Of a stretch of 27,243 bases of DNA, positions 3,029-27,021 are shown piece by piece (position 1 is the stretch's first letter; each line of letters opens with the position of its first letter). Both the position numbers and the translations under genes were made by a program. Origin of the DNA: an uncultured archaeon (GTDB lineage: Archaea; Iainarchaeota; Iainarchaeia; JAADDC01; CAZMYQ01); the NCBI GenBank assembly GCA_964577235.1, contig CAZNYH010000078.1:1-27243 (forward strand), read 5' to 3'. The notes below the pieces were generated by a model. It did no database searches, was not told the origin of the DNA, and worked only from the letters and a program-made list of their open reading frames with translations.

Positions 3029-3241
3029 CTATTTTATTATTTTTACTTCAATGTTAAATCTTTTACCTGTTTCTAGTACTTCGTTTTTTATGAATTCAGG
3101 AATATTTCCTTTTACTATGATTATCCCAAATCTGGCTAAAATTATTTCACCACCTGCGTTTTTTAAAGTTTCCAAAATAGTATTAAATGCTTCTCTTTCA
3201 TTTTGAGCGTTAAGTTTTCCTCCAAACACAGAGCACAACAT
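3029..3241 (-). CDS. Small hypothetical protein (70 aa) with a predicted beta-alpha-beta-beta-alpha-beta pattern
   Basis: TAATG overlap with the rpoN stop, fills the gap to the AAA gene (7 nt spacer), typical residue composition. Confidence 0.7.
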   Translation of the reverse strand: MLCSVFGGKLNAQNEREAFNTILETLKNAGGEIILARFGIIIVKGNIPEFIKNEVLETGKRFNIEVKIIK

Positions 3242-3459
3242 TATATAAATTTAGCTGAAGGTTTTTCTATCTTGTGATATTTAATTACGTCTTTCATGAT
3301 TTCAACTCCAGATATAAACATTCTTCTACAACAGTATCTTTTTATTTTTAACCTTTTAAATGCTTCTTTTGGCCCAACTTTTTTGGATAACTCTAAATAT
3401 TTTTTCCATAAATGTCCAATAGGTTTTCCACATGTAAAACATCTTACAGGAAATAACAT
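3241..3459 (-). CDS. rpoN: DNA-directed RNA polymerase subunit N (Rpo10)
   Basis: MLFPVRCFTCGK and RYCCRRM zinc-binding signature. Confidence 0.97.
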   Translation of the reverse strand: MLFPVRCFTCGKPIGHLWKKYLELSKKVGPKEAFKRLKIKRYCCRRMFISGVEIMKDVIKYHKIEKPSAKFI

Positions 3460-3520
3460 AAAATTTTATATCAAAATTTATTTATAACCAAGAATTATAA
3501 ATATTAATAGAGGTGTTATT
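3460..3520. promoter_or_regulatory. Divergent promoter region for rpoN and rps17, with the rps17 SD
   Basis: 61-bp AT-rich spacer with TATA-like boxes on both strands (TTTATTTA/TTTATAAC 3477-3488 on +); GAGGTG at 3510-3515. Exact boxes are uncertain. Confidence 0.5.
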
Positions 3521-3814
3521 ATGATATGCAACGATGTACATTGCCCATATCATGGACATATTAAGGTTAGAGGGAAATTATTTGTGGGAAAAGTAATTTC
3601 AATAAAAAGGCATAAAACAGTAACAGTGCTAGTAGAACATATCAAAAAAATTCCCAAATATGAAAGATATGCCAGATACACTTCAAAAATTCATGCTCAC
3701 TTACCTCCATGTATAAAAGTAGAAGAAGGAGATATTGTGGAAATAGGAGAAACTAGAAAAATATCAAAAACCAAATCATTTGTAGTTTTAAGAGTACTAA
3801 AAAGAGGTGATTAA
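3521..3814 (+). CDS. rps17: 30S ribosomal protein uS17
   Basis: CPYHGHIKVRG, KYERY, HAHLPPCI, GETRKISKTKSFVV. Confidence 0.97.
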   Translation: MICNDVHCPYHGHIKVRGKLFVGKVISIKRHKTVTVLVEHIKKIPKYERYARYTSKIHAHLPPCIKVEEGDIVEIGETRKISKTKSFVVLRVLKRGD

Positions 3815-13298: not shown

Positions 13299-13548
13299 TT
13301 TTCTCTCCAACCAACAACATTCCTTCTGAGTAAATTCCCTTTATCTTTTTTGGTTCTATGTTATACAAAAACAAACATTCTTTGCCTAAAATTTCCTCTT
13401 TTTTTAAATGTTCCTTGATTCCAGCAATTATTGTTTTAATTTCTCCCCCAAAGTTTACTTGTAGTTTATATAATTTATCTCCAAAATCCTCAACTTTTTC
13501 AATTTTGCCCCATTTTAATTTTAGTTTTAAAAAACTATCTTTGTACAT
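13264..13548 (-). CDS. Stand-alone tRNA-binding OB-fold protein (MetRS C-terminal / Trbp111 / CsaA-like)
   Basis: GKIEKVE, KLYKLQVNFG, TIIAGI, NIEPKKIKGIYSEGMLL; SD AAGGTGA upstream. Confidence 0.9.
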   Translation of the reverse strand: MYKDSFLKLKLKWGKIEKVEDFGDKLYKLQVNFGGEIKTIIAGIKEHLKKEEILGKECLFLYNIEPKKIKGIYSEGMLLVGEKITLIEPVDIPL

Positions 13549-13551
13549 AAC

Positions 13552-13579
13552 ATCACCTTTTTTTATAAAGGTAATTATT
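13552..13579 (-). promoter_or_regulatory. SD-masking hairpin / 17-nt shared element upstream of the tRNA-binding protein gene
   Basis: On -: ATTACCTTT-ATAAAA-AAAGGTGAT, 9 bp with one G-U; AATAATTACCTTTATAA is identical to 25328-25344. Confidence 0.5.
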
Positions 13580-13583
13580 TTTA

Positions 13584-14408
13584 ATGAGGATATTGCTATT
13601 TATAACAGTATTTATAACAATATGTTTTGCGTTTCCTTTTTTTAACACAAAAAAAATTTGGATTTATGAAGTTAATGGTGTAATTGGTAAAGATGTGTTG
13701 CCTAAAGATTTAAAACCTATAATTGATAAATTAGAAAAAGACAGAGATGTAAAATATTTCGTGTTAAAAATTAGTTCTCCAGGAGGAGGCGTTGTAGATT
13801 CATTTGAAATTTATCATATGCTAAAATCGTTAAAATTAAAACGCCCAGACTTAAAAATAGTCGCTTATATTTATAGAGGAGGATATTCAGGAGCCTATTT
13901 GATTTCATTAGGAAGTGATGAAATTGTTTGCCACCCAGGATCATCTTTGGGAAGTATAGGGGTGATTGGAAGTTTCATCTCATTAAAAGAGTTATTTAAA
14001 AAAATAGGAATACAAACTTATGTAATGCGAACTCCTGAAACCAAGGCGTATCCTACAATTTATGATGATTTGAATCAAGAAAAACTAGAAGAATTATATA
14101 GACCATTGATTAAATATTATTATAATATTTTCCTAAATACAGTTAGAAAAGAAAGACATATTAATCCAGAAAGATATGCTGGAAAAATATATTCTTGTTT
14201 AGAGGCGGTTGAATACAAACTTGCTGATAGACAAATGTATTATTACCAATTTATTGAATATTTAAAAGAAAAATTAAAAAGAGAAGGATACAATCCTGTT
14301 GTAGAAAATGTTACTCCTAAAAAAGATTGGTTTGAGGAAATGTTTGGAGAGGTGTTTACATGGTTAAAGTATATATTTGTGGGTCCACAATTGAGTATGA
14401 TGACTTGA
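13584..14408 (+). CDS. sppA: S49-family signal peptide peptidase (SppA-like)
   Basis: N-terminal hydrophobic anchor, ISSPGG, GYSGAYLIS (catalytic Ser region), GSIGV, ETKAY (Lys). Confidence 0.85.
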   Translation: MRILLFITVFITICFAFPFFNTKKIWIYEVNGVIGKDVLPKDLKPIIDKLEKDRDVKYFVLKISSPGGGVVDSFEIYHMLKSLKLKRPDLKIVAYIYRGGYSGAYLISLGSDEIVCHPGSSLGSIGVIGSFISLKELFKKIGIQTYVMRTPETKAYPTIYDDLNQEKLEELYRPLIKYYYNIFLNTVRKERHINPERYAGKIYSCLEAVEYKLADRQMYYYQFIEYLKEKLKREGYNPVVENVTPKKDWFEEMFGEVFTWLKYIFVGPQLSMMT

Positions 14409-16192
14409 AAATAGGAGAATTATATAAAGGAAAAATAGTAGCAAAAGTAAAGTTAGGTTATTTAGTAAGACTTAATCCTATCCTAAAAGGATTGCTAAAA
14501 TTTGTGGATTCAAAAAGAATCCACGAAATTGGAGATGAAGTAATTGTAAAAATTATAGCAATAAGGCCAGAATTAGGAGAAATTGACTTAGTTGAAGAAA
14601 CTCCAGAAAATGTTGAAGAAGAATTAATTGAGAAAGAAGTAGATGTTATAAAAATAAAAGATGTTTCAGAGGGTTTAGTAAGAATTAGAGGGCAAGTTAT
14701 TAACATTATAATTACAGGTCCCACTGTTTTCACAATTACAGATGGAACTTCAATTATTTGGGCTAGTGCTTTAGACGTACCTGGATTAAAAGCATATCCT
14801 GAAATAAATGTCGGTGATTATGTAGAAGTTATTGGAAGAGTAGGATATCACGCTGAGAGACCTCAAATTTTAATATCATCGATGAAAAAATTGGAAGGAA
14901 TAGAAAAAGAATTAGTAAAGAAAGAAATTGAAGAAAATTTAGAAAAATTGAGCCAACCTGAAAAAATAGAGTTCTTGATTCAATCAGAAACTCTTGAAAA
15001 GTTAAAAGATAAATTAGTATTAGCAGCAAAATTAATTAGAAAAGCCATATTTACAGGAAAACCTATTTTGATAAGACATCATTATGATTGTGATGGAACT
15101 TGTGGTGGTTTAGCATTGGAAACTGCAATTCTTGAATTAGTAAAAAAAGTAAATCCACATCCAGAAGCTGAATGGTATTATATAATCAGAAAACCTACTA
15201 AGGTGCCATATTATCATGAAGAAGATGTAATTAAAGATATTGTAAATGCTTTTGAAGATAACTTAAGATTCAATCAAAAATTGCCTTTAATAATTGTAGT
15301 TGATAATGGATCTGGAAGTGAGGATATACCTGCTTATAAAAGGTTAAGAAATTTGGGAATAGATATAATTGTTATTGATCATCATAAGCCATATATTGAA
15401 AATGGAAAATGTCCTGTTGATGATTATGTTTTATGCCATGTAAATCCAAGATTACATAACCTTTCTGGAGATTTTACAGCAGGAATGTTGGCAACTGAAA
15501 TAGCCTTGTTAGTAAATCCTAATATAAAAGAAAAAATTAAACATTTGCCAGCATTAGCTGGAACGGGGGATAGATCAGAACATCCAGATTATGAAAAATA
15601 CTTAAAAATTGCAGAAGAAAAAGGATATAATAAAGAATTTTTGAAGAAAATTGCAGAATGTATGGATTATGAAGCATTTTATTTAAGATTTATGAGTGGT
15701 CGAGGTTTTGTTAATATTATTGCTGGATTAGAAGATTATGAACTATGCAAAAAATACGTAGAAGATTTATATAAAATAGTTAAATCTAGACAAGAAAGAC
15801 AATTAAAGGTAGTAATTCCTCATGTTGTAGAAAAAACAATTGAAGATTGGAAAATTATCTTCATAGATGTGGAAAAATACGCTTATAAATTTGAATATCC
15901 AGCTCCTGGAAAAACAGTTGGATTAGTAAAAGATTATTTTGATGGAGATTATCCATTAGTTACAATAGGTCATGGGCCAGATTTTATAATAATTAGAGCT
16001 AATAAAAAAGCAGTTGAAAAAGGATTTGATGTAACCGATTTATGCAACTTTTTAGATAATTATGTCAAAGATGCTGGTATCTTAGGAGGAGGACACGAAG
16101 ATGCAGGTTCTATAAAGTTTATTGAAGGAAAAAAAGATGAGGTTATACTTGGAATTGAAGAATACTTTAAAACTAAGATTACTAAGATATAA
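14360..16192 (+). CDS. RecJ-like DHH phosphoesterase/exonuclease with S1 and OB domains (HAN/COG1107-like, no N-terminal Zn finger)
   Basis: RHHYDCDG, VVDNGS, IDHHKP, VNP, AGTGD, GGGHEDAG; S1-like GKIVAKVKLGYLVRL; OB TGPTVFTITDG; SD GAGGTG upstream, inside sppA. Confidence 0.88.
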   Translation: MVKVYICGSTIEYDDLKIGELYKGKIVAKVKLGYLVRLNPILKGLLKFVDSKRIHEIGDEVIVKIIAIRPELGEIDLVEETPENVEEELIEKEVDVIKIKDVSEGLVRIRGQVINIIITGPTVFTITDGTSIIWASALDVPGLKAYPEINVGDYVEVIGRVGYHAERPQILISSMKKLEGIEKELVKKEIEENLEKLSQPEKIEFLIQSETLEKLKDKLVLAAKLIRKAIFTGKPILIRHHYDCDGTCGGLALETAILELVKKVNPHPEAEWYYIIRKPTKVPYYHEEDVIKDIVNAFEDNLRFNQKLPLIIVVDNGSGSEDIPAYKRLRNLGIDIIVIDHHKPYIENGKCPVDDYVLCHVNPRLHNLSGDFTAGMLATEIALLVNPNIKEKIKHLPALAGTGDRSEHPDYEKYLKIAEEKGYNKEFLKKIAECMDYEAFYLRFMSGRGFVNIIAGLEDYELCKKYVEDLYKIVKSRQERQLKVVIPHVVEKTIEDWKIIFIDVEKYAYKFEYPAPGKTVGLVKDYFDGDYPLVTIGHGPDFIIIRANKKAVEKGFDVTDLCNFLDNYVKDAGILGGGHEDAGSIKFIEGKKDEVILGIEEYFKTKITKI

Positions 16193-16665
16193 TGCCATAT
16201 TTTTTCTTGGGTGTAGATTCAGGAATATCATTAGGAGTCGCTTTGATTGATATAAATGGTAATTTAATATATAAAAATACATACAGGAACTACAAGTTAT
16301 ATGAAGTTTTTAAAGACATATCAAAATACGGGAAACCAATAATAATATGTTCTGATAAGAAAAAACCACCTGAATTAATAATTAAAATGTCAAAATATTT
16401 TAACTGTCCTTATTTTAAATTAAAAAAAGACCTATATAAGCATGAAAAAGATGATTTGGTTAAGAATTTTGAAATAGAGTTAACAGAACATGAAAAAGAT
16501 GCTTTGGCGTCTGCATATTATGTTTATAAGCGATATCTTCCAAAAATTTTGAAAATAAAGAGAATTTGTAAAGAAAAAAAATTTAGTGAAGAACTTGTTG
16601 GAAAAATCTTATGCGATTTGGTGAAAGGAATTAAGATTTCTTCTTCGATATATGATAAATTTTAA
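16192..16665 (+). CDS. Stand-alone DUF460-like RNase H-fold (YqgF/RuvC-like) protein
   Basis: LGVDSG..GVALIDINGN, YGKPIIICSD..PP, EHEKDALASAY; TAATG-coupled to the upstream nuclease. Confidence 0.72.
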   Translation: MPYFFLGVDSGISLGVALIDINGNLIYKNTYRNYKLYEVFKDISKYGKPIIICSDKKKPPELIIKMSKYFNCPYFKLKKDLYKHEKDDLVKNFEIELTEHEKDALASAYYVYKRYLPKILKIKRICKEKKFSEELVGKILCDLVKGIKISSSIYDKF

Positions 16666-17348
16666 TCAATTTCTACGATAAAATATTTTTCTGCATCATA
16701 TATTTTGGCATTTGGAAATTCTTCTTTTATATCTTCAATTGTCCATCTGTGAGATATAAATCTATAATCATCAACCCAAATAATTACATCTCTATTTTTT
16801 GAGTCAAACCAAAAATTTGGAATTTTTCCATACTTTTTTATAGCAAAATCCCAAACAAAATCTAAATAAGCATAAGAAGATAACGTTTCTATCATTTTGT
16901 CGTAACTTTTAACGTCTTTGTATTTTGTAAGTGAAAGAATTATCTTTTTTGCATAAGATTTCCATAATTTTAAAATAGATTTTCTCTCTTCTTTATAAAA
17001 ATTTCCAAAAGTATTATTTAAGCATATAATTACATAATTATCCTCTTTTTCAGGTTTCCATATTGTAAAATCAGCCTCAATAACTTTCGTTTTAGGGTAT
17101 CGTTTATTTTTTAAATATTCTATAAAAAGTTTATTTTTATCTATAGCCCAAATTTCTTTAATATTTTTGATGTTATAAAACCACTCTATTTCTTTTCCCG
17201 GTCCCGCACCCATATCTATTAAAATACAAGGATATTTAATTCCTTCCAAAATATTTCTAATGATTTCTTTTTCTTTGTTTCTCCATTTTCCATACCATTT
17301 ATCTTCGTAATTCTTAGGGTCTGAATAAATTTCGTAAGTGTCTTTCAT
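16662..17348 (-). CDS. Class I SAM-dependent methyltransferase, substrate unknown
   Basis: Motif I LIDMGAGPG, motif II WAIDKN, IEADF, NNTFGNF. ATG 17348 preferred to GTG 17366. Confidence 0.82.
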   Translation of the reverse strand: MKDTYEIYSDPKNYEDKWYGKWRNKEKEIIRNILEGIKYPCILIDMGAGPGKEIEWFYNIKNIKEIWAIDKNKLFIEYLKNKRYPKTKVIEADFTIWKPEKEDNYVIICLNNTFGNFYKEERKSILKLWKSYAKKIILSLTKYKDVKSYDKMIETLSSYAYLDFVWDFAIKKYGKIPNFWFDSKNRDVIIWVDDYRFISHRWTIEDIKEEFPNAKIYDAEKYFIVEID

Positions 17349-17353
17349 TAAAA

Positions 17354-17956
17354 TTATTTGAACCACTTTAAAACTCCTTCTTTATATTCTTTATCATAAT
17401 CAAAATTTATAGGTTCAAATTCAACAAAACTTGAAATTGGAATTACAGTTACAGTATGAGAAGCTTTAACCCAACCAGTTTGGGCTATTTTTGAACATAA
17501 TTTTGTTAATTCTTCTAATGAGTTAGTATACGTAATCATAAGAATATCCCACTCTGTTCCTTTAAGAAGTAAAATAGCCCTTACTATGTTTGTTTTCAAA
17601 ATTTCTCTATCTATTTTTAGAATTTCATTTACGTAAAATTTAGATTCCCATCCAGTTGGATAAGAGTCAGGTGGTCTATAGATTGGAGGTTCTATTCTCA
17701 CTTTTAGAAATGTTAGATATATCCTATCAAAAACATTTAAAGGATTTATAGTTGTAACTTTTTCAGCAACTATTATGTTTTTTTCCTTCAATTTCTTAAT
17801 TGATTTTTTTACCTCTTCTTTTGTAATTTTTAATTCATTGGCAATTTTTTCTATTTCATCTTCAGACAAGTTTTTTGGTTTAGTTAAATAATTTAACACT
17901 TTAACATCAGTTTCTGAGAGTTGATTTATAATTGCTCTATCCCATACTTTTTCCAT
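17354..17956 (-). CDS. Lrp/AsnC-family transcriptional regulator
   Basis: LSETDVKVLNYL, HTH IANELKITKEEVKKSIKKLKEKNII, C-terminal RAM-like GTEWDILM..NSLEELTKL..VKASHT. Confidence 0.78.
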   Translation of the reverse strand: MEKVWDRAIINQLSETDVKVLNYLTKPKNLSEDEIEKIANELKITKEEVKKSIKKLKEKNIIVAEKVTTINPLNVFDRIYLTFLKVRIEPPIYRPPDSYPTGWESKFYVNEILKIDREILKTNIVRAILLLKGTEWDILMITYTNSLEELTKLCSKIAQTGWVKASHTVTVIPISSFVEFEPINFDYDKEYKEGVLKWFK

Positions 17957-18015
17957 TAATTACTTTAAAAAAGCAGAAACTTAATATTTTAATGATTAAA
18001 AGAGAATGGTGCAAA

Positions 18016-18870
18016 ATGGCTCTAAAAGAACTTAAGAGTATAGTTCCTTTTTTTAAACCATTATTTTCTGCTTGTAGAAAATATTTAGTATATACTGGAT
18101 GGGGAATCACTGTAAATGAATATACTGCTTTTTCTTTAATTGCTGCGTTAATAGTTTCTTTAGTATTTTATGCACTTGTTTATACTGTTATTTTGGCTCT
18201 AACACAAAACATTTTTATAAGTTTAGTGTTTGGGTTTGGTGGATCATTGTGGGGTTTTTTAATTGGAATTTTAATTATGATGTATTTACCCAGATACACT
18301 TACATTTCATTAGGAAAAAGAATTGATGTTGAGTTGCCATATGTAACTGCTCACTTTTCTACAATTGCAGGGGTAGGTATTCCTATTCCTACTGTGTTGA
18401 AAATAATGAGTTCTTTTGAAGAATATAAAGTGTTAAGTAAACGATTTTATGAGATGTATAAAAACATTTCTATTATGGGAACCGATTTATTTTCAGCTTT
18501 AGAATATGAAGCAAAATTAACTCCAAGTAAAAAATGGGGTGAAATACTATATGGAGTATTATCCATTTTAAAAACAGGGGGAAATATAAAGATGTTTTTG
18601 GAAGAAGAAGCTGAAAAATTGCTGGAAGAAAAAAGAATGCTTGAGCGAAAATTTATAGAAACCTTAAATTTAATTACGGAAGTTTATATGGTTGTTTTTG
18701 TGGTAACTCCAATTATGATTATAATTGCTGTAGCGATAATGGGAATGATAGGAATGAGTGGAGATATAAATTTAAAGGCTATTTTATGGGCTTTTGTGTA
18801 TATAGGAATGCCATTTATTGCATTTATGTTTGTATTAATAATTAATCTTTTAAGACCAGCAGAAATTTAA
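18016..18870 (+). CDS. Type II secretion system F / TadC-like pilus membrane platform protein
   Basis: IDVELPY, IAGVG, GTDLFSALE..TPSKKW, LKTGGNI..FLE, EVYMVVFVVTP; transmembrane segments at both ends. ATG 18016 follows GGTG. Confidence 0.85.
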   Translation: MALKELKSIVPFFKPLFSACRKYLVYTGWGITVNEYTAFSLIAALIVSLVFYALVYTVILALTQNIFISLVFGFGGSLWGFLIGILIMMYLPRYTYISLGKRIDVELPYVTAHFSTIAGVGIPIPTVLKIMSSFEEYKVLSKRFYEMYKNISIMGTDLFSALEYEAKLTPSKKWGEILYGVLSILKTGGNIKMFLEEEAEKLLEEKRMLERKFIETLNLITEVYMVVFVVTPIMIIIAVAIMGMIGMSGDINLKAILWAFVYIGMPFIAFMFVLIINLLRPAEI

Positions 18871-18891
18871 TTATGTATCATATTTTGTTAG

Positions 18892-18909
18892 AATTTTTAT
18901 TGAAAAATT
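18892..18909. terminator. Possible bidirectional T-rich terminator between convergent tadC and SUI1
   Basis: AATTTTT-ATTG-AAAAATT inverted repeat giving T-runs on both strands. Confidence 0.35.
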
Positions 18910-18918
18910 TAAAAAATA

Positions 18919-19233
18919 TTAAGTAACTTCTATATCTTTATATCCTATTTGTTTTAACAATGCATATACTTTAATTCTGTGATCTCCTTGTAATTCTAAA
19001 GTGTATGTTTTCGTATTTTGATCAAAATCATAAGTTCCCCCACATCCAAATTTCTTCTTCATAGTTTTTAATAAATTTTTAATTTCACTTTCATTTCCAT
19101 AAATTCCTTTTATAATAGTTACTATTTTTCTTCTTTTTCGCATTTCTGTGTAAATGTATATTTTTGAAGTTTCTTTTCCTAAAAATTCATAACTTTCAGA
19201 GACTCCGAATAATTTATCTAATTGGTCTTTCAA
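18919..19233 (-). CDS. sui1: Translation initiation factor SUI1 (aIF1)
   Basis: RKRRKIVTIIKG, LKTMKKKFGCGGT, ELQGDHR; canonical slot after uL29. Confidence 0.95.
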   Translation of the reverse strand: MKDQLDKLFGVSESYEFLGKETSKIYIYTEMRKRRKIVTIIKGIYGNESEIKNLLKTMKKKFGCGGTYDFDQNTKTYTLELQGDHRIKVYALLKQIGYKDIEVT

Positions 19234-19424
19234 GATTCACCCCTCTCTTTAAGTATCGTTTTCACCCTTGCTATTATTTTTTTAATATTCTTTGTTATAC
19301 TAGATTTTTTTTGAGGTGTTGTTAACTCCTTCCTCAATTCATTGTATGCTTGATTCAGAATCTCCTTCAGTTCTTCTGTCTTCATTTCCCTCAACTTCTC
19401 CGGCTTGTAATCTTTTGGCTTCAT
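19230..19424 (-). CDS. rpl29: 50S ribosomal protein uL29
   Basis: LREMKTEEL, IKKIIARVKTILKE; perfect SD GGAGGTG before ATG 19424, inside the rps3 coding region. Confidence 0.9.
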   Translation of the reverse strand: MKPKDYKPEKLREMKTEELKEILNQAYNELRKELTTPQKKSSITKNIKKIIARVKTILKERGES

Positions 19425-20013
19425 CTATTACACCTCCTAAATCAATAGTATCTACCGTGTTTAAATCAGGAGGTACTATATATACTTTTACTCCAATTAT
19501 TCCTGATTTTGTTAAGGCAGTATCAAAACCTCTACTTACTAATTTTGCATACCCTCCTGTTTTAATCATATATCCTGCCGTGAATCTCCTAGTAATAGAT
19601 CTTGCTCCTTTTTTCCCTAATTTTCCTGAAATTACTACTTCTATACCTTTTGCCCCTGCATTTAATACTCTATTTATAATTCTTCTAACTACAGCTCTTT
19701 CTCTTTCTCCTCTTTCTAAAGCTCTTGCAATTCTTGCTGCTTGAATTTGTGCATCTAATAATTCGTTTTCCACTAATTTAACAAATACTCTGACTTCATC
19801 TTTTAGCATGTTTTTTAAATCTTCTATTACTTTTCTTATTGTATCTTTGTTAGCTATTACTCTTGGTCTTCTACACCAAACAAAAATTCTATATTCTGTT
19901 ACGGTTCTCACTAAATCTACTCTTGAAATAAGAGCTTCTGGGAATTCTCTTTTGAAATAGTCTTCTACTATCAGTTTTTTTACACCTTCATCAACAAATT
20001 CTCTTTCTTTCAT
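19339..20013 (-). CDS. rps3: 30S ribosomal protein uS3
   Basis: KH domain, LDAQIQA, GAKGIEVVISGKL, RGFDTALTKSGIIGVKV. Confidence 0.96.
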   Translation of the reverse strand: MKEREFVDEGVKKLIVEDYFKREFPEALISRVDLVRTVTEYRIFVWCRRPRVIANKDTIRKVIEDLKNMLKDEVRVFVKLVENELLDAQIQAARIARALERGERERAVVRRIINRVLNAGAKGIEVVISGKLGKKGARSITRRFTAGYMIKTGGYAKLVSRGFDTALTKSGIIGVKVYIVPPDLNTVDTIDLGGVIDEAKRLQAGEVEGNEDRRTEGDSESSIQ

Positions 20014-20447
20014 TCTCTCACCCCTAAGATAATTCTTAAGTGAGTTCTTTTTTTAACTCTTGTTAAATTTCTAAATGCATGTCTTTTATAATAAATCAAT
20101 CCAGTTCTTCTAATATTTATTATTTTTTGTCCTTTTCCTACCCAAACTTCTTTTATATATAATTTCCCTTCAATTCCTTGGTTTTTAGCATTGTTTAGTG
20201 CTTGTTTTATTAGTTTTATAAAGTATTTTGCTACTTTAACTGGATATCTTCCAGATTTCACTCCTTCTTTAACTCCTTTTCTATGCGCCACTTTTTTGTT
20301 ATATCTTTTTATTGGAATCCATTCTTTTAGTTTTATTACATCTTCTAAAATTTTTAATGCCTTATCTACATCTTTACCTTTAATATATCTTCCTACTTCT
20401 ACAGCAAACTTTCTAGATATAGGAGCATTTTTAATCATGGCTATCAT
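20010..20447 (-). CDS. rpl22: 50S ribosomal protein uL22
   Basis: PISRKFAVEV, VAHRKG, GRYPVKVA, THLRIIL. Confidence 0.96.
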   Translation of the reverse strand: MIAMIKNAPISRKFAVEVGRYIKGKDVDKALKILEDVIKLKEWIPIKRYNKKVAHRKGVKEGVKSGRYPVKVAKYFIKLIKQALNNAKNQGIEGKLYIKEVWVGKGQKIINIRRTGLIYYKRHAFRNLTRVKKRTHLRIILGVRE

Positions 20448-20455
20448 TCAATCAC

Positions 20456-20893
20456 CTACTTTCCTACATGTCTTGTACTTCTGGATGCTCCTTGTCCAAA
20501 TCCTCCGTGAGCTACTTTCTTTCTAGTTGGGACAAATTCTCCTAGTCTGTGACCTAACATTTCTGGTTTTATTTCAACAGGAACGAATTCTTTTCCGTTG
20601 TGTACATATATTGTCATTCCTACCATTTGTGGCAATATTGGCATACTTCTATAATGGGTTTTAATTTTCTTTTTAAATGGTTTTCCTTCTTTCATTGCTT
20701 GCCATGCTTGAGCAATTTTTATTATTAATTTTCTCGCTTTTTGATCAGTATTTATTTTTTTAATCAATCTTAATATACTTCTTCTTATTCTCGCAGGACA
20801 CAATTTAGCAAATTCTTCCAAATCCATTTGTTGAAGTTGCTCTAAAGTATAGCCTCTAAACGTAAATTTTTTAGGTTTACCTTCATATTCCAC
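20456..20893 (-). CDS. rps19: 30S ribosomal protein uS19
   Basis: [38 protein letters not shown]. Confidence 0.97.
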
Positions 20894-20897
20894 TTAA

Positions 20898-21614
20898 TCA
20901 CCTCTTCTTTCTTCCAGTTCTTCTTGCTGCTATATGGCCAACTTTCCTTCCAGGTGGTGCGTTTCTTGAAACACACGTTGATTTCCCAGGATGATGTTCT
21001 TTCCCTCCAAATGGGTGTGATGCTGGAACCATATGCACTCCTCTTACTTTTGGATAATATTTGTTTCTTGCTTTACAAAAGTGGAATTTCTTTCCTGCTT
21101 TCATAAATGGTAATTCCGTCCTTGCTCCACCTGCTATGTTTCCAATTATAGCATAGCATTCTGGGTCCAACTCTACTGTTCTTCTTGATGGGAGGGTTAC
21201 ATAAACACATTCTTCTGATTTTGCGCTTACTAACGCATAAGTACCAGATGTCCTTGCTAGTTTTCCACCATCAAATGGAACTTTTTCTATGCAACATATA
21301 GGAGTACCTTCAGGGATTTTTTTCAATGGCAATATGTTCCCAATTTTAATTTCAGCCTCTTCTCCTATTTTGATTTTTTGTCCAACCTCCAACCCTTCTA
21401 CTGCTGGAATATAATACTTTTCACCATTTTCTAAAGTAATTTCAGCTACTGGATATAATCTAGCTCTATCATCTATTAAGTCAGTTACTTCTCCTATTAT
21501 AGTTCCCTCTTTTGGGTGTGGAAGGCATATTTTTGGTACTTTATAATGATGGTCTGGTACTCTAAACACATTACTTCCTTTTCCTAATCTTTGGACTAAA
21601 ATTTTCTTACCCAT
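20898..21614 (-). CDS. rpl2: 50S ribosomal protein uL2
   Basis: QRLGKG, DGGKLARTSG, GGARTELP, KVRGVHM..HPFGG, PPGRKVGHIAARRTG. Confidence 0.98.
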   Translation of the reverse strand: MGKKILVQRLGKGSNVFRVPDHHYKVPKICLPHPKEGTIIGEVTDLIDDRARLYPVAEITLENGEKYYIPAVEGLEVGQKIKIGEEAEIKIGNILPLKKIPEGTPICCIEKVPFDGGKLARTSGTYALVSAKSEECVYVTLPSRRTVELDPECYAIIGNIAGGARTELPFMKAGKKFHFCKARNKYYPKVRGVHMVPASHPFGGKEHHPGKSTCVSRNAPPGRKVGHIAARRTGRKKR

Positions 21615-21623
21615 ATAACCACC

Positions 21624-21893
21624 TCATATTGGAATTCCTAACATTCTTCCTATTTCCATAGCATCTTCAGGATTTTCCATTCTAACATATGCTTTCTTTA
21701 TAATTTTTTTTCTAAATCTGGTTATAGCAGTATTTACTTTTTTTACTTTTTTTCCATATAATTTTTCTATAGCTTCTTTTATTTGTGGTTTTGTAGCATT
21801 TAAAGGCACTTCAAAAGTGATAATTCCTTTACCTAACAAATTATAGGTTTTTTCAGTAAGTATGGCTCTAATTATTATTTTTTGATAATCCAT
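21624..21893 (-). CDS. rpl23: 50S ribosomal protein uL23
   Basis: TEK, TFEV..ATKPQIKEAIE, VKKVNT, KKAYV. Confidence 0.95.
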   Translation of the reverse strand: MDYQKIIIRAILTEKTYNLLGKGIITFEVPLNATKPQIKEAIEKLYGKKVKKVNTAITRFRKKIIKKAYVRMENPEDAMEIGRMLGIPI

Positions 21894-21897
21894 CTAA

Positions 21898-22701
21898 TCA
21901 CCCCGTGAATAAATTGTATAGTTTTTCTATTGCTCCTTCTGTCCATACAGTTAACCTTCCTGGTTGTCCTCCAGGTGCTAACACTTCTGCATTTAATTTA
22001 TCTACACTTACCACATCTACTCCTTCTAAATTTTTAACTGCTTTAATTAAAGGGCATTTACCACTTACTACAAATAAAATACTTTTCTTTCTTTTATATT
22101 TTCTCCCTCTTCTTTTTCCTTTTCCTGCTCTTACTCTTTTTTTACTCATTGCATATTCAATATCTTCCCATATTCTTAGTTTTTTTAGTAAATCCCTTAC
22201 TTCTTTAGTTTTTGATATTTTTTCATATTCTTTATCTATAATTATTGGTAATTCTATATCTTCAGGGATTTTGTGTCTTTCTAATATTAGTTCTTTAACA
22301 GCTGTTGCTGCAATTGCACTTCTAATTGCTTTTCTTCTTTCTTTTTTGTTTATTTTTTCATAAATTTTCTTTTCTACTTTTGGAGGATGCGCTACTGGCC
22401 CTCCTACTGCTTGAGGTACGTTAGCAACGAATCCTCTTACTGGGTCATTATCAATGTGTTTTGTTCTTGGTAGTCTATTTAATCCCCTTGTCATAGCACA
22501 TCTAGGATCATCTCTTCTTCCAATATATTCTGCGGTATAATCTCTTCCTGCTTTTGGTCTTACTCCTTTTGGTTGAAATCTATGAGTCCAAATTGCAATT
22601 ACTGCTCTCCTTATTAAATCTGGTCTAACTTCTTCTTCAAAGTGGGGAGGCAACTCTATTTCTTTCCACTCTCCGTTTATAGTATATACTTTTGCTTTCA
22701 T
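21898..22701 (-). CDS. rpl4: 50S ribosomal protein uL4
   Basis: RPDLIRRAV, GGPVAHPP, INKKERR, RAGKGKRRGRKY, LAPGGQPGRLTVWT. ATG 22701 overlaps the uL3 stop (ATGA), SD GAGGTG. Confidence 0.97.
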   Translation of the reverse strand: MKAKVYTINGEWKEIELPPHFEEEVRPDLIRRAVIAIWTHRFQPKGVRPKAGRDYTAEYIGRRDDPRCAMTRGLNRLPRTKHIDNDPVRGFVANVPQAVGGPVAHPPKVEKKIYEKINKKERRKAIRSAIAATAVKELILERHKIPEDIELPIIIDKEYEKISKTKEVRDLLKKLRIWEDIEYAMSKKRVRAGKGKRRGRKYKRKKSILFVVSGKCPLIKAVKNLEGVDVVSVDKLNAEVLAPGGQPGRLTVWTEGAIEKLYNLFTG

Positions 22702-23666
22702 ACATTGCACCTCACAAATTGTCTTGCACTATCAATATATTCTATTCTCTCAATTGCTCTTAATTTTCCTTTTCTAACTGGAAATCTCATTCCAATTAAT
22801 CTTTTTTGAGGTCCTGGCACTGAGCCTAAAATTATTACATAATCATTTCTGATTACTCCATAATGTGGCCATCCTGATTTAGGATTTATGTTAAGTTCTT
22901 TTGGGTTCGAAATTAAAACAATTTGCTTATTAAATTCTGTCCTAGTATGGTATCCCATTTGTCCAGGCATTGGAACAGTCCACATTGTGTATCCAGGAGT
23001 AAATTGACCAATTGCTCCTACGCCTCTTTTGGTTTTATCTTTTATATGACTAAAGTCAAATACTCCGAATCTTTTCACTGCCCCTTGAAATCCTTTACCT
23101 TTAGCAACTGCTTTAACATCAATTAATTGATTATTATTGAATACATCTGAAACTCTTATTTCTTTACCTAATAATTCAAAAGCTTTTTGCTTTTTTTCTT
23201 CTAGATTTCCTCCCAACGCTATTTCGACAACTTCACATTTTTTCTTTCCAATGGTAGTCAATTTTGGTTGAGTACAACAAATTATCCTAACTTCATCAGC
23301 GTTTTCTAAAATCTTTTCAAAATCTTCTTTATTGTGTTCTTTTTTAATTTTTGGAATTCTTCTAAATATTTCTTTTGGCAAATTAGTTGTCCAAAATTCT
23401 CCTAATGTTTTTAATCCTAATTTTGTCTTTTTATATGCTCTAATTGCAACTACTTTCATAGGAGGGCATTCAATTATAGTTACGGGATAACAGTATTCCT
23501 TAATTTCTTTTCCTACTTTTTCTTTTACTAATATATGAGTCATCCCTACCTTGTATCCATAAAATGCTAATGGTTTACATTCTTCTACTTTTGGCCATGA
23601 TTTAAATCTTGGAGTTTCTGTTTTCGCTCTCTTTCTAGGATAATATGCCATTGATCCTCTTCTCAT
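22698..23666 (-). CDS. rpl3: 50S ribosomal protein uL3
   Basis: AYYPRKRA, GYKVGMTH, PVTIIECPP, KGKGFQGAVKRFG, GQMGYHTRTEFNK, GSVPGP. ATG 23666 follows SD GAGGTGA; the ORF-track start at 23720 is rejected. Confidence 0.97.
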   Translation of the reverse strand: MRRGSMAYYPRKRAKTETPRFKSWPKVEECKPLAFYGYKVGMTHILVKEKVGKEIKEYCYPVTIIECPPMKVVAIRAYKKTKLGLKTLGEFWTTNLPKEIFRRIPKIKKEHNKEDFEKILENADEVRIICCTQPKLTTIGKKKCEVVEIALGGNLEEKKQKAFELLGKEIRVSDVFNNNQLIDVKAVAKGKGFQGAVKRFGVFDFSHIKDKTKRGVGAIGQFTPGYTMWTVPMPGQMGYHTRTEFNKQIVLISNPKELNINPKSGWPHYGVIRNDYVIILGSVPGPQKRLIGMRFPVRKGKLRAIERIEYIDSARQFVRCNV

Positions 23667-23700
23667 ATATTCACCTCGTATTATCTTATTAAAAATCAAA

Positions 23701-23712
23701 CTTATATATAAG
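23701..23712 (-). promoter_or_regulatory. Probable TATA box of the rpl3 operon
   Basis: Palindrome CTTATATATAAG about 35-46 nt upstream of the uL3 ATG; BRE side is poor on -. Confidence 0.45.
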
Positions 23713-23722
23713 CAAAACACTT

Positions 23723-23729
23723 AAAAAAA
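23723..23729 (-). terminator. Oligo-T terminator after tRNA-Val
   Basis: T7 on - about 58 nt downstream of the tRNA 3' end. Confidence 0.4.
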
Positions 23730-23786
23730 CCTACATTTTTTTAGTATATTTTCAACTTTTAGATTTGTTTTTTAGAAATTATTACA

Positions 23787-23858
23787 TGGGGCCGCTGGGA
23801 ATCGAACCCAGGACCTCCGCCTCGTCAGGGCGGCGTCATACCACTAGACCACGGCCCC
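23787..23858 (-). tRNA. tRNA-Val(GAC), intronless, CCA not encoded
   Basis: GGGGCCG acceptor stem, D arm GTCTAGTGGTATGAC, anticodon arm CCGCC-CTGACGA-GGCGG, T arm CTGGG-TTCGATT-CCCAG, discriminator A; 72 nt. Confidence 0.97.
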
Positions 23859-23873
23859 TTATTATACAATATA

Positions 23874-23898
23874 CAAAAACTTATTTAAATATTTTTCG
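23874..23898. promoter_or_regulatory. Palindromic TATA box with A-rich BRE-like flanks on both sides (bidirectional promoter for tRNA-Val and ORF 23919)
   Basis: TATTTAAATA at 23882-23891 is self-complementary; CAAAAAC precedes it on +, CGAAAAA precedes it on -. Confidence 0.65.
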
Positions 23899-23918
23899 AA
23901 AATGACATTATAAAGTTT

Positions 23919-24617
23919 ATGACATTAAAAGCCAAGGAAATTAATAGTTTTTTTCCATATTTCGAAGTGTTAAGATCAACTGCTAAATACAGGGAAATAA
24001 TAGAAAAAATTCATAAATATTCTGGAAAAAATAATATTATTGAATTTTGTGAGTGGTGTTTGAAAAATGAAAAAATTGTGAACAAATATACTAGGGCAAA
24101 GTATTTGCTTACAGCATGTAAATGGATAATAAACAATCAAGAAAAAGTTGAAGAAATAATAAATAAATATAAAAATGTTCGATTTCCTGAAATAATGAAT
24201 CTCCCACATAAATGGGTTATTATTATTTTGCAACATTTTGGGTTTTTAGAGATTACAGAAAATGGTTTAAGGGAACGAATTATACACAGAGTGTATGTAA
24301 AAGCATATAGAAAAAATCCTAATATTAAAGTTAAAAATAAATTTGACCAACTATTAGAGTACTTATCTCAAAATAATGATAAAGTTTCTAATCACTTGCG
24401 TAGAATAATTCAAGGAGAATTATATTTTGAAGAGTTTAAAATATTACTCAAAGAAGGCGTTTTGGAGATAAGTCATGTATCATTATCATACCAATTATTC
24501 AGAATTTTGAGAAAATTTGGATTCGTAGAATTAGAGAGATGGTCTCTAGGCAGAGTTAGAGTATACTTAACAGATAAAGAAGAATTTAAGAAATTATTTA
24601 GAAACTTAAATCCCTAA
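23919..24617 (+). CDS. Hypothetical protein (232 aa), possibly tandem winged-helix
   Basis: Two related motifs IILQHFGFLEI and RILRKFGFVEL; the second is followed by a wing-like RVRVYLTD. Confidence 0.6.
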   Translation: MTLKAKEINSFFPYFEVLRSTAKYREIIEKIHKYSGKNNIIEFCEWCLKNEKIVNKYTRAKYLLTACKWIINNQEKVEEIINKYKNVRFPEIMNLPHKWVIIILQHFGFLEITENGLRERIIHRVYVKAYRKNPNIKVKNKFDQLLEYLSQNNDKVSNHLRRIIQGELYFEEFKILLKEGVLEISHVSLSYQLFRILRKFGFVELERWSLGRVRVYLTDKEEFKKLFRNLNP

Positions 24618-24624
24618 TATTATT

Positions 24625-25278
24625 ATGAAAGAAGTTCAGGAAATAACATCTGCACTTTCAAATTATTACAAATCTATTTTAAAATTGTGGGCTACATTAA
24701 ATGAAATAGAATCTATAGAAAAGTTAAAAAATAATTTTATGGATGATTATTTTGAGTTGAAAAGGCACAAAGATAAGGAACTATTTGAATCTTTATATTT
24801 AACATTTGAATATAGAGACACTATTTTAGACTTATCTAAAAACTCAAAAGAAAAATGTGAAAAAATAATTTCTATTTTGGAAGAAATAAAAACATCCTTA
24901 GAAGATATAATTTCCACATTAGAAGAAAAAAATCCCAACATTATAATTGAAGACCCTCTATCTATTGACTTGGGAAAATTAGAAGATTTATTTAAAGAAG
25001 ACTATATTGAGGTAAAACCAGTAATTTTTAGCGAAAAAACTATAAATTTGTTATTAGAATTTCCAAATAGTAAAAGAAAAGAATTTTCAGTGATAATTCC
25101 AAAAAAATCATTGAAAGATATAATTTTGTTTTGCTTTTCAAATAAATTAGGAGTTTTTGTAGAAGGTTCAGAATTGAGAATGTATATAAATCCTTACGCA
25201 AACATATTAAAGATAGAAAGTGACAAAAAAGAGGTGATTTTACGCACTTTAAAGAAGAAGAAAATCATAAAAAAATAG
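24625..25278 (+). CDS. Hypothetical protein (217 aa), N-terminal helical/coiled-coil region and C-terminal alpha/beta region
   Basis: Long ORF 7 nt after the previous gene; heptad-like E/K/L-rich N-half; no family recognised. Confidence 0.6.
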   Translation: MKEVQEITSALSNYYKSILKLWATLNEIESIEKLKNNFMDDYFELKRHKDKELFESLYLTFEYRDTILDLSKNSKEKCEKIISILEEIKTSLEDIISTLEEKNPNIIIEDPLSIDLGKLEDLFKEDYIEVKPVIFSEKTINLLLEFPNSKRKEFSVIIPKKSLKDIILFCFSNKLGVFVEGSELRMYINPYANILKIESDKKEVILRTLKKKKIIKK

Positions 25279-25327
25279 CCCTAATATATACTTTAGGATG
25301 TATATGTTTAATAATATTTATTTATGC

Positions 25328-25353
25328 AATAATTACCTTTATAAGGTGATTAT
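25328..25353 (+). promoter_or_regulatory. SD-masking hairpin upstream of rps19e
   Basis: ATAATTACCTT-TAT-AAGGTGATTAT: 11 bp (one G-U), ending immediately before ATG 25354. Confidence 0.55.
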
Positions 25354-25782
25354 ATGAATATATTCGATGTGCCAGCAGACAAATTAATAGAAGAAGCAGC
25401 AAAAGAATTAGAAAAAAAGATTGAAATGCCAGAATGGGCATTTTATGTAAAGACAGGTCCACATAAAGAACACCCTCCGGTTCAAGACAATTGGTGGTAC
25501 ATCAGGGCTGCTTCAATATTAAGAAGGCTATATAAATTTGGAAGACCTATTGGAATTCAAAGATTAAGGAAATTTTATGGTGGAAGAAAAAATTACGGAA
25601 CTGCCCCAGAACATAAAGTAAAAGGTTCAGGAAAAATTGTGAGAACAATATTACAACAATTAGAACAAGTAGGATATGTTAAAAAAGTTCCAGGTGGAAG
25701 AATAATAACTCCAGCAGGAAAATCTTTTCTAGACAAAATTGCTTCAAAAATATGGAGGGAAATGAATGAAGCCAAATCTTGA
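25354..25782 (+). CDS. rps19e: 30S ribosomal protein eS19
   Basis: PEWAFYVKTG, NWWYIRAASILR, YGGRK, GSGKIVRTILQQLE, GRIITPAG. Confidence 0.97.
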   Translation: MNIFDVPADKLIEEAAKELEKKIEMPEWAFYVKTGPHKEHPPVQDNWWYIRAASILRRLYKFGRPIGIQRLRKFYGGRKNYGTAPEHKVKGSGKIVRTILQQLEQVGYVKKVPGGRIITPAGKSFLDKIASKIWREMNEAKS

Positions 25783-25957
25783 TTTAATTTTGTTAAGAAA
25801 ACTAGAAAAAGATGCTTATGAAAGATTAATGAGAATTAAGATGATTAACCCACAATTATATCAAATGGCTGTTCAAGTAATATTAAACATAAATACTAAT
25901 GAAAAAATTACCGATGATGAATTGAAGAGTATATTAATAAGACTTAGAGGTGGTTAA
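25766..25957 (+). CDS. PDCD5/TFAR19-like DNA-binding protein, minimal core only
   Basis: AYERLMRIKMINP, KITDDELKSIL; canonical position after eS19. Confidence 0.85.
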   Translation: MKPNLDLILLRKLEKDAYERLMRIKMINPQLYQMAVQVILNINTNEKITDDELKSILIRLRGG

Positions 25958-26143
25958 ATGGCAAAATATAAATCTCTTCAAAAGAAAATACTATTATGTA
26001 GTTTATCCCGATCTGGAAGAGGTGCACCACTACAATTTGCAGCAAAGTCTAAAAAATTCACAATAAGATATCATCATAAGATTACTTACTGGAGAAGAAC
26101 TAAACTAGGTAAAAAAGTTGAAAGGGTGATGAGAAATGACTGA
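25958..26143 (+). CDS. rpl39e: 50S ribosomal protein eL39 (divergent)
   Basis: MAKYKSLQKK, YWRRTKL; position before eL31. Confidence 0.85.
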   Translation: MAKYKSLQKKILLCSLSRSGRGAPLQFAAKSKKFTIRYHHKITYWRRTKLGKKVERVMRND

Positions 26144-26438
26144 ATATAGAAGGTATATAATTCCTTTAAGGAAAGCTTTTGAAACAGCACCACACACAAA
26201 AAGAGCTCCAAAAGCAATAAAAGTATTGAGAGAATTTGTAAAAAGACATTCAAAAATGGAAGAAGTTATAATCTCAAACAAAGTTAATGAATTTATTTGG
26301 AAACATGGCATTAGGAACATTCCAAGAAAAGTAGAAGTAATAGTTTCTATTGATAAAAATTTAAATAAAGCATTTGTATATTTGCCGGAAGAACTAGAAA
26401 AGGTGGCTGAAAATGAAGGTCAAAAAAGTGAAGGATAA
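26136..26438 (+). CDS. rpl31e: 50S ribosomal protein eL31
   Basis: YIIPLR, KRAPKAIKVLREFVKRH, VNEFIWKHGIRNIPRKVEV. Confidence 0.96.
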   Translation: MTEYRRYIIPLRKAFETAPHTKRAPKAIKVLREFVKRHSKMEEVIISNKVNEFIWKHGIRNIPRKVEVIVSIDKNLNKAFVYLPEELEKVAENEGQKSEG

Positions 26439-27021
26439 CTTAGGTTATTATTTCACTTGTAATAACAAATATTGTATCGGGAATTTTTCGAAATATTTTG
26501 AAGATATAAAAAATTATTTAGAAGTGGACATCGTTCCTATAACAATAAATCGTTCTCAATATTGTGGATTGTTTAGTAAAATTATAGAAAATTGTCTAAT
26601 TGTTCCTGATTTGTTTCCAGACGAGGAAAAAACAGTTAAAGATTATGGATTAGAAGTTATTAAAATAAATTCTAAATATAATGTTTTAGGAAATTTTATT
26701 TTAGAGTATAGAGATTACTTATTTGTAAGTCCTCTTCTAGAAGATGAACTTACAGTATTAAATAAAGAGATTATAAAATGTAAGGATGAATTAGTTGGAA
26801 GTAAATGTATAGCAAATAGCAAAGGGATTTTAGTTTCCCCTCTTTTAGAAGAAGAGGATTATAATACTATGAAAGAAATTTGCAATAATATTGAAATAAC
26901 TACATTAGGGTTTGGAAATCCTTTTTTAAGCGCATGTGTTTTAATGAATGATAAAGGAGCCTTAATAGAGCAAAGTTCCACAGCTCTAGAATTATCGTAC
27001 TTTGAAAATGTATTTCTATAA
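26413..27021 (+). CDS. eif6: Translation initiation / anti-association factor aIF6 (divergent, shortened)
   Basis: Pentein repeats: LGNFIL, LVGSKCIANSKGILVSP, GFGNPFLSACVLMNDKGALI..STALEL; position after eL31. Confidence 0.85.
   Translation: MKVKKVKDNLGYYFTCNNKYCIGNFSKYFEDIKNYLEVDIVPITINRSQYCGLFSKIIENCLIVPDLFPDEEKTVKDYGLEVIKINSKYNVLGNFILEYRDYLFVSPLLEDELTVLNKEIIKCKDELVGSKCIANSKGILVSPLLEEEDYNTMKEICNNIEITTLGFGNPFLSACVLMNDKGALIEQSSTALELSYFENVFL

Follow-up and report, generated by a model that had tools for sequence, protein, structure and literature searches.

Two conserved gene slots for RNase P proteins are empty in a divergent vent archaeon, most likely through reshuffled gene order

In many archaea, the genes for two RNase P proteins hold conserved places beside ribosomal protein genes, with rpp29 between SUI1 and rps17 and rpp21, accompanied by a YhbY gene, upstream of rps19e. 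The window analyzed here, a stretch of 27,243 nucleotides that forms part of a 38.5-kb scaffold, contains both places and neither gene, and it raises the question of whether this organism has lost RNase P or has moved the genes for its proteins. The ribonucleoprotein enzyme is reported to be near-universal in Archaea, with Nanoarchaeum equitans as the single known exception (PMC6380272; PMC3491384). True absence of RNase P would make this only the second cellular lineage known without it, after N. equitans, with tRNAs transcribed without leaders, possibly of independent origin and in a genome that still has long ribosomal operons; it would also allow a test of repeated leaderless-tRNA evolution in reduced hyperthermophilic symbionts. 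An earlier note on this DNA proposed such a loss from three supports, namely the Rpp29 vacancy, the Rpp21 vacancy and the geometry of a tRNA promoter. Our analysis finds the RNase P slots empty in both places, with reshuffled gene order as the most likely cause; at present the finding amounts to a local break in synteny.

The organism, an archaeon of hydrothermal vents, has a low GC content (~29%) and many lineage-specific ORFs, and its lineage has ~40-45% ribosomal-protein identity to everything except one other MAG. The best named matches of S17 and S19e (58-67% identity) come from Aenigmatarchaeota, Diapherotrites, Altarchaeaceae and Thermoprotei, and N. equitans is not within the top 120 matches of these proteins. 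A scan of a genome collection with S3 returned two distant Woesearchaeota-like loci only (33-36% identity), and exact-protein look-ups recovered the same scaffold plus short strain variants only. Judged by these protein similarities, the organism is a deep-branching, probably DPANN-type archaeon.

A gene map built from the ORF listing, Pfam and NCBIfam (Table 1) places the ribosomal superoperon in two parts, of which the minus-strand genes from L3 to L29 are the S10-like half. As the earlier note had described, a convergent TadC-like gene lies 48 bp past the end of SUI1; direct reading of this spacer shows terminator-like oligo-T runs on both strands, and it corresponds, at the SUI1 end, to the place that rpp29 has vacated. 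The divergent rpoN that had been reported ahead of rps17 is indeed there, 61 bp away, and this second spacer, which has no room for a gene, contains TATA-like runs and, ahead of the S17 ATG, the ribosome-binding site GAGGTG. The canonical placement of rpp29 between SUI1 and rps17 is absent from the studied locus. Misassembly at the two junctions is ruled out by their recurrence in independent assemblies: the SUI1-tadC junction is also found in L001-L003 and the rpoN-S17 junction in L006 and L008-L011 (rpoN itself in L006 and L008-L010, just an unannotated cut ORF at its position in L011), and these loci derive from two samples, assembled separately, and from further metagenomes, at 99.4-99.9% nucleotide identity. 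The 100-N gap of the ENA scaffold lies between the ORF u199 and the Brix gene, away from both junctions.

Table 1. Features of the window at and around the two empty slots.
Feature	Position	Strand	Basis and remarks
rpoN	3241..3459	-	PF01194, E 4.8e-24; divergent from S17, away from usual gene cluster
rpoN-S17 spacer, 61 bp, AT-rich	3460..3520		direct sequence reading
rps17	3521..3814	+	PF00366, E 5e-26; opens S17-to-SecY unit; upstream without rpp29
S17-to-SecY unit	3521-11229	+	rps17 is first gene
TadC/FlaJ-like membrane protein, T2SSF domain	17932..18870	+	PF00482, E 4.2e-13; convergent with SUI1
tadC-SUI1 spacer, 48 bp between stops	18871..18918		direct sequence reading
SUI1/aIF1	18919..19233	-	PF01253, E 3.3e-20; closes L3-to-SUI1 unit
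L29	19230-19424	-	PF00831
L29, S3, L22, S19, L2, L23, L4, L3	19230..23720	-	ORFs; Pfam labels of same genes in L001
L3	22698-23720	-	ORF; start of minus-strand unit L3, L4, L23, L2, S19, L22, S3, L29, SUI1
tRNA-Val(GAC)	23787..23858	-	ARAGORN; Rfam 72 bits; sequence
box A + BRE-like promoter region of tRNA-Val	23882..23898	-	sequence
box A TTTAAATA, -31 to -24 from tRNA +1	23889 to 23882	-	sequence
A-rich BRE-like CGAAAAAT ahead of box A	23898 to 23891	-	sequence
ORF u232, 232 aa	23919..24617	+	no significant Pfam, NCBIfam or PDB sequence match
ORF u217, 217 aa	24625..25278	+	directly upstream of S19e; no Pfam, NCBIfam or PDB sequence match
rps19e	25354..25782	+	PF01090, E 2.7e-52; then dsDNA-binding protein, L39e, L31e, eIF6

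Among the three supports for RNase P loss, the Rpp29 vacancy alone is unusual. The Rpp29 locus is the most conserved among RNase P gene loci (PMC4919917), and the expected arrangement was reproduced in other loci, with Rpp29 flanked by SUI1 or L29 on one side and S17 on the other in six of the seven other lineages examined; positive controls with SUI1-Rpp29-S17 are L004, L005, L015, L019 and L022, and L106 has L29-Rpp29-S17, SUI1 not being called. An empty Rpp29 slot is, on this count, uncommon. In a locus labelled Aenigmatarchaeota (L107), S17-L14 lies amid unrelated genes with no adjacent Rpp29, and Aenigmatarchaeota are scored as possessing RPP29 and RPP21; in L018, Rpp29-S17 is severed from the remainder of the operon. 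In the sole close relative of the studied organism (L014, ~73% ribosomal-protein identity), S17 is likewise preceded by non-coding, AT-rich sequence, at least 130 nt long. A sensitive-word search with Rpp29 of L015 as the query gave no candidate for a relocated rpp29 from these vent samples, but with 7 matches its reach is low and it is too insensitive to serve as evidence of absence; the two matches inspected both belong to other organisms and have the SUI1-Rpp29-S17 order intact.

The Rpp21 vacancy fails as support for loss when other archaea serve as a control. The grouping of rpp21 and a YhbY gene upstream of rps19e was reproduced in other loci, with rpp21 upstream of S19e in 24 of 61 archaeal loci, and the slot is empty in the other 37 (61%), which makes vacancy the commoner state. 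In two loci (L032 and L038), the rpp21-yhbY pair lies downstream of S19e instead, 3.5-4 kb away. In the studied locus, rps19e is directly preceded by neither rpp21 nor yhbY; the two unrelated ORFs previously described ahead of it are present and encode proteins of 217 and 232 aa without known relatives. The 232-aa product of u232 consists largely of helices, perhaps with a winged helix at the C-terminus, has no homologue among 717 kb of sequence from other loci and is a lineage-specific protein to which no function is assigned; negative HMM searches rule it out as Rpp21 or YhbY. The u217 protein has an acidic and helical N-terminal half, and it contains two Cys only and no zinc ribbon, so it is neither Rpp21 nor YhbY. 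Single-sequence AlphaFold (AF2) models of both proteins were too poor for use (pLDDT 53 for u232 and 46 for u217). Searches of u232, u217, orf70 and u199 by Pfam up to E 10, NCBIfam, PDB sequence search and custom HMMs were all negative, and these ORFs were rejected as diverged forms of Rpp21, YhbY, Rpp29, Rpp30 or HARP.

The promoter geometry of the tRNA gene likewise fails its control as support for RNase P loss. The single visible tRNA gene, tRNA-Val, starts with G1, does not encode CCA and is a stand-alone transcription unit, in a sample of one. Its box A is part of the palindrome TATTTAAATA, and its TTTAAA ends 26 nt upstream of the purine at +1. In this one gene box A ends at -24; tRNA genes at ten control loci with an Rpp21 gene of their own have it at -22 to -25 and fit a fixed distance equally well, which makes the spacing ordinary. 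No sequence of this scaffold was found in the study's metatranscriptome (RNA) runs.

The searches for RNase P components cover the 38.5-kb scaffold as their portion of the genome. Over its whole length, Pfam, NCBIfam, custom six-frame HMMs and Rfam found no Rpp29, Rpp21, YhbY, HARP or RNase P RNA, and the earlier statement that no ORF resembles Rpp29, Rpp21 or YhbY holds by HMM, Pfam and NCBIfam on 38.5 kb. The custom HMMs for these three proteins, run in six frames over the window and the rest of the scaffold, gave no match (best E-values 0.3-1.2, versus 1e-32 to 1e-35 in positive controls), and in permissive E-value mode tRNA-Val was the sole Rfam match on the scaffold, with no RNase P RNA. 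Pop5 and Rpp30 were also not found on the scaffold, and it does not include the loci of Pop5, Rpp30 and RNase P RNA. The step from absence in the slots to absence in the genome is not supported within the 38.5 kb visible; empty slots by themselves are no indication of RNase P presence or absence, and the earlier note's own caveat, that the genes simply moved, is the more likely reading than loss.

The explanation we favor, with a probability of roughly 0.6, is a synteny break in a fast-evolving lineage, the RNase P protein genes being elsewhere in the genome. No rpp29 is present at either end of the break and no rpp21-yhbY pair adjoins S19e. In this lineage, the S10-spc superoperon has been cut at the SUI1/rpp29/S17 joint, leaving halves that are now 15 kb apart, in opposite orientation and separate transcription units, of which the L3-to-SUI1 unit terminates in the oligo-T runs toward tadC and the S17-to-SecY unit has its own AT-rich promoter region and ribosome-binding site. 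This would be a remodelling of gene order such as is frequent in archaeal genomes that are small and fast-evolving (probably DPANN-type); rpoN, too, is gone from its usual cluster here, and the RNase P protein genes would most likely be in portions of the genome beyond the scaffold and may have diverged. The recurrence of both junctions in independent assemblies, the broken contexts in relatives (L107 and L018), the frequent vacancy of the Rpp21 slot, the ordinary box A spacing and the near-universality of the ribonucleoprotein enzyme in Archaea all favor this reading. Against a synteny break stand the usual retention of rpp29 in the SUI1/L29-Rpp29-S17 order (6/7 lineages) and the similar non-coding AT-rich sequence before S17 in L014. 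In addition, a single cut leaves rpp29 on one flank and here it is on neither, so the scheme calls for one or more additional events (deletion or transposition).

A first alternative is that ribonucleoprotein RNase P was truly lost, as in N. equitans, with box A at a fixed distance and leaderless tRNAs, in which case transcription would start at the mature 5′ end of every tRNA with no leader to remove. The absence of rpp29 on both flanks of the break and of rpp21-yhbY at S19e fits this proposal, as do the same empty region upstream of S17 in the closest relative, the low GC and richness in lineage-specific ORFs of this vent archaeon, and a stand-alone, G-starting tRNA-Val whose TTTAAA ends 26 nt upstream, as reported in N. 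equitans (PMC3491384). However, the view of the genome is limited to 38.5 kb, the promoter spacing is non-specific given its presence in ten Rpp21-encoding loci, and most of the archaeal loci surveyed have an empty Rpp21 slot as well. A clean loss also keeps the neighbours adjacent, as in the Aquifex rpmH-yidD-yidC order (PMC10941002), whereas here the operon is broken, and with one known archaeal case the prior for loss is very low (PMC3491384; PMC6380272). Complete loss of the enzyme is a doubtful reading, and that the lineage lost ribonucleoprotein RNase P, or at least the Rpp21-Rpp29 pair, seems unlikely.

The Rpp21-Rpp29 pair binds the specificity domain. It is conceivable, if improbable, that this pair was lost or diverged unrecognisably along with a shortening of the RNA, while Pop5-Rpp30 and the catalytic core were kept, and such a reduced form would exceed both type T of Thermoproteaceae, which is without RPP21 and has a short specificity domain (PMC4919917), and the degraded enzyme of the nanoarchaeon Nst1, which has a short RNA and is without POP5 (PMC3655853). 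Both partners of an interacting pair are missing from their usual places and there are these precedents for partial reduction (PMC4919917; PMC3655853), but there is no positive evidence for a reduced enzyme, Pop5, Rpp30 and the RNA being also unseen with their loci off the scaffold, and every known reduced form keeps Rpp29. A protein-only HARP enzyme in place of the ribonucleoprotein is very improbable, as nothing in the data favors it beyond a vent habitat and low GC that loosely recall the Aquifex setting, no PIN_5 (PF08745)/HARP match occurs among the scanned ORFs or the precomputed Pfam labels of the scaffold, the sole unannotated HARP-sized ORF (12211-12810) has just a PDB match at chance level (E 0.5), to the metallophosphoesterase MJ0936 and not to a PIN domain, and HARP is reported to be lacking in every DPANN genome and never to occur in Archaea without the ribonucleoprotein's proteins (PMC6380272).

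A general lesson follows for archaea: RNase P loss can be read neither from an empty Rpp21 slot nor from a box A that lies ~24-26 nt ahead of a tRNA gene. In practical terms, the locus points the way to a complete genome bin for this very divergent archaeon of the vents.

When compared with known systems, this archaeon resembles N. equitans (Randau et al., 2008; PMC3491384) in being low-GC and hydrothermal, and its single visible tRNA gene has a TTTAAA that ends 26 nt before a purine +1. In N. equitans, however, RNase P absence is genome-wide, all tRNA spacings are uniform and RNA-Seq served to map the 5′ ends of the tRNAs, whereas the studied organism, known here from sequence alone, offers one tRNA in 38.5 kb and retains long ribosomal operons. 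As in Aquifex aeolicus, which uses HARP, an RNase P protein gene is missing from a conserved ribosomal-gene neighbourhood, but Aquifex shows a clean deletion with adjacent neighbours and a HARP gene, while the neighbourhood here is broken and the scaffold has no HARP-like gene. Type T Thermoproteaceae and Nst1 are precedents for partial archaeal loss of RNase P proteins and differ in that both retain Rpp29. Relative to the Rpp21-YhbY-S19e cluster (seen in L026, L033, L037, L046, L056, L057, L060, L063 and L101), the run of S19e, dsDNA-binding protein, L39e, L31e and eIF6 is conserved, and two lineage-specific ORFs plus tRNA-Val occupy the upstream side. Finally, the canonical S10-spc superoperon with SUI1-Rpp29-S17 (PMC4919917) is here cut at the rpp29 position into inverted halves 15 kb apart, with rpp29 off both ends, tadC facing SUI1 and rpoN facing S17, but the internal gene order within each half, L3 to L29 plus SUI1 and S17 to L15 plus SecY, is the same.

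The arrangement of genes at SUI1/tadC, rpoN/rps17 and rps19e, mapped from an ORF listing with Pfam and NCBIfam matches, proved to be correctly described in every statement of the earlier note, which had read the empty rpp29 and rpp21 slots as a sign of an archaeon lacking RNase P or using the protein-only enzyme HARP (see the table). The SUI1-tadC and rpoN-S17 junctions were both found again in independent assemblies, which rules out chimeras or other assembly errors at these points. The ribosomal genes form two separate transcription units; the one running from L3 to SUI1 terminates in T-runs that face tadC, and the one from S17 to SecY starts behind an AT-rich spacer that carries TATA-like runs as well as the ribosome-binding site GAGGTG.

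Gene map of the window, from the ORF listing and family matches
Feature	Position	Strand
Class IV aminotransferase	4-876	+
AAA ATPase	868-3021	-
70-aa ORF, no known relatives	3029-3241	-
rpoN	3241-3459	-
61-bp spacer	3460-3520	
S17, L14, L24, S4e, L5, S14, S8, L6, L32e, L19e, L18, S5, L30, L15, SecY	3521-11229	+
Unrelated genes: two unknown ORFs, Brix, tRNA-binding protein, SppA, HAN nuclease, DUF460, methyltransferase, HTH protein	11342-17956	mixed
TadC-like gene	17932-18870	+
48-bp spacer	18871-18918	
SUI1, L29, S3, L22, S19, L2, L23, L4, L3	18919-23720	-
tRNA-Val(GAC)	23787-23858	-
ORF u232	23919-24617	+
ORF u217	24625-25278	+
S19e, dsDNA-binding protein, L39e, L31e, eIF6	25354-27021	+

The rpoN gene lies apart from the usual ribosomal/RNA-polymerase cluster, and the 70-aa ORF after it, which had no match in any library, is kept beside it in all strain variants. 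S14 (5745-5993) has 82 aa, whereas its counterparts in L015 and L106 (two loci fetched for comparison) have 56 and 50 aa; it shows a Lys-rich N-terminal extension, a retained CxxC...CxxC zinc motif and a weak Pfam match. At 14360-16665, a Hef-associated nuclease (HAN, DHH/OB; NF053577, E 1.7e-155) is followed at once by a short DUF460 protein (157 aa), and the two may be a functional pair.

Exact-protein look-ups place the window (~29% GC) on a 38.5-kb hydrothermal-vent metagenome scaffold (ENA ERZ23491583), and further assemblies of run ERR2021503, like three JGI metagenomes, contain shorter strain variants of 99.4-99.9% identity; the sequence was absent from the RNA runs examined. Its ribosomal proteins are ~73% identical to those of the sister MAG GCA_964570545.1 (L014) and only 40-45% identical to those of all other fetched loci, a search of genome collections returned distant relatives only, and the best named database matches of S17 and S19e are to DPANN groups and Thermoprotei (58-67% identity). 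As judged from these comparisons, the organism is treated as a deep-branching vent archaeon, probably of DPANN type. Between window and ENA scaffold, the u232 protein is 94.8% identical, versus 99-100% for neighbouring genes, which marks u232 by sequence as a locally fast-evolving gene without known relatives. On L006 (ENA scaffold_134), a 100-N gap with a 55-bp overlap at its flanks (19322-19421) separates u199, an ORF without annotation (window 12211-12810), from the Brix-domain gene; because the window closes this gap (~12787-12841), it is taken as an assembly artefact, and an insertion there was rejected. Upstream of the window on the same scaffold, a 477-aa gene (L006 251-1684) joins a PolD large-subunit catalytic piece to LAGLIDADG/homing-endonuclease matches, suggesting an intein-containing or split PolD DP2.

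The premise that rpp29 lies between SUI1 and rps17 in many archaea holds, as Rpp29 (PF01868) is encoded between SUI1 (or L29) and S17 in L004, L005, L015, L019, L022 and L106, and among RNase P gene loci this one was described as the best conserved (Samanta et al.; PMC4919917). Exceptions were L107 (labelled Aenigmatarchaeota), in which S17-L14 lies among unrelated genes without Rpp29, and L014, in which the stretch before S17, up to the contig end, is AT-rich and non-coding over at least 130 nt. Aenigmatarchaeota have been scored as possessing RPP29 and RPP21. The sole unusual fact is that rpp29 lies at neither edge of the SUI1/S17 break; since a single cut would leave it with SUI1 or S17, the arrangement calls for a second event, either deletion or transposition.

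The companion premise, that rpp21 and yhbY lie just upstream of rps19e, stood for a minority of loci and not as a general rule. Among 61 metagenomic S19e loci that extend at least 700 nt upstream, Rpp21 (PF04032) was found no more than 1.6 kb upstream of S19e in 24 (39%), nine of which also have YhbY (PF01985), so finding the slot empty is more usual than finding it filled and says almost nothing. Unrelated genes precede S19e in L104 and in L012, the genome with the most similar S19e (67% identity). The rpp21-yhbY pair has clearly relocated in two unrelated metagenomic archaea, where it sits downstream of S19e at a distance of 3.5-4 kb (L032 9356-9957; L038 9991-10622).

That no ORF resembles Rpp29, Rpp21 or YhbY was confirmed across the scaffold. 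No unassigned ORF matched any of them in sequence searches of Pfam (E up to 10), NCBIfam and the PDB, and HMMs made from sequences of other loci, run on six frames of all 38.5 kb, gave best E-values of 0.3-1.2, versus 1e-32 to 1e-35 for positive controls. Permissive Rfam searches matched only the tRNA, and no RNase P RNA, and the 48- and 61-bp spacers are too short for a gene. Single-sequence structure models of u232 and u217, the ORFs upstream of rps19e, were too poor for comparing folds.

Given the displaced rpoN and the 7.7 kb of unrelated genes between SecY and SUI1, this lineage has clearly been rearranged several times. The RNase P protein genes are probably encoded elsewhere in the genome, possibly in diverged form, and the empty slots are best classed with a familiar kind of event, the fragmentation of operons in reduced archaeal genomes.

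The window's solitary tRNA gene, tRNA-Val, forms a unit of its own in which BRE and box A are well placed; TTTAAATA lies at -31 to -24 from G+1, after an A-rich BRE-like stretch. This promoter matches the one described for Nanoarchaeum equitans, in which box A (TTTAAA) precedes the start by 26 nt (PMC3491384). As a control, TATA-like 8-mers were located in front of each of the other 44 tRNA genes that the fetched loci contain. Such a box has its end at -22 to -25 in L031, L035, L036, L040, L041, L042, L050, L058, L071 and L075, loci that all encode Rpp21 and belong to GC-rich genomes in which the box is clearly distinguishable. Therefore, this spacing is usual in loci that also carry an RNase P protein gene, and it does not point specifically to RNase P loss. 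In the Thermoprotei-like controls L035, L036, L042 and L050, a tRNA-His gene follows tRNA-Ala at a distance of a few nt, and the two must be separated by processing. The tRNA-Val box A sits within a perfect palindrome, TATTTAAATA (23882-23891), 24 nt from the tRNA +1 (23858) on one strand and ~28 nt from the divergent u232 ATG (23919) on the other; this may be a bidirectional promoter, in which case the u232 mRNA would be nearly leaderless.

Because two of three lines of evidence fail controls, RNase P loss has less support than it first seems to have. In favour of a genome-wide loss with leaderless tRNAs are the absence of rpp29 from both edges of the break and the empty region upstream of S17 that the sister MAG seems to share; against it are the repeated rearrangements and the reported near-universal occurrence of the RNP enzyme in Archaea (PMC6380272). 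A slot empty in ~1/7 of relatives and a prior of 1-5% give a rough posterior of ~7-27%; with 15% adopted, loss is unlikely, a modest lead worth checking with the full bin. A further reduced RNase P without the Rpp21-Rpp29 pair is possible, perhaps less so than loss, and HARP ranks last; it is reported to be missing from every DPANN genome surveyed and never to occur in Archaea without RNP proteins (PMC6380272).

A comparison with Aquifex also speaks against loss: there, clean loss of an RNase P protein gene left its neighbours adjacent (PMC10941002), whereas here they are parted. One tRNA gene is at hand here, while the N. equitans case convinces through a spacing that is uniform across its whole tRNA gene set, together with the G-1 extension of tRNA-Tyr and the mapping of 5' ends.
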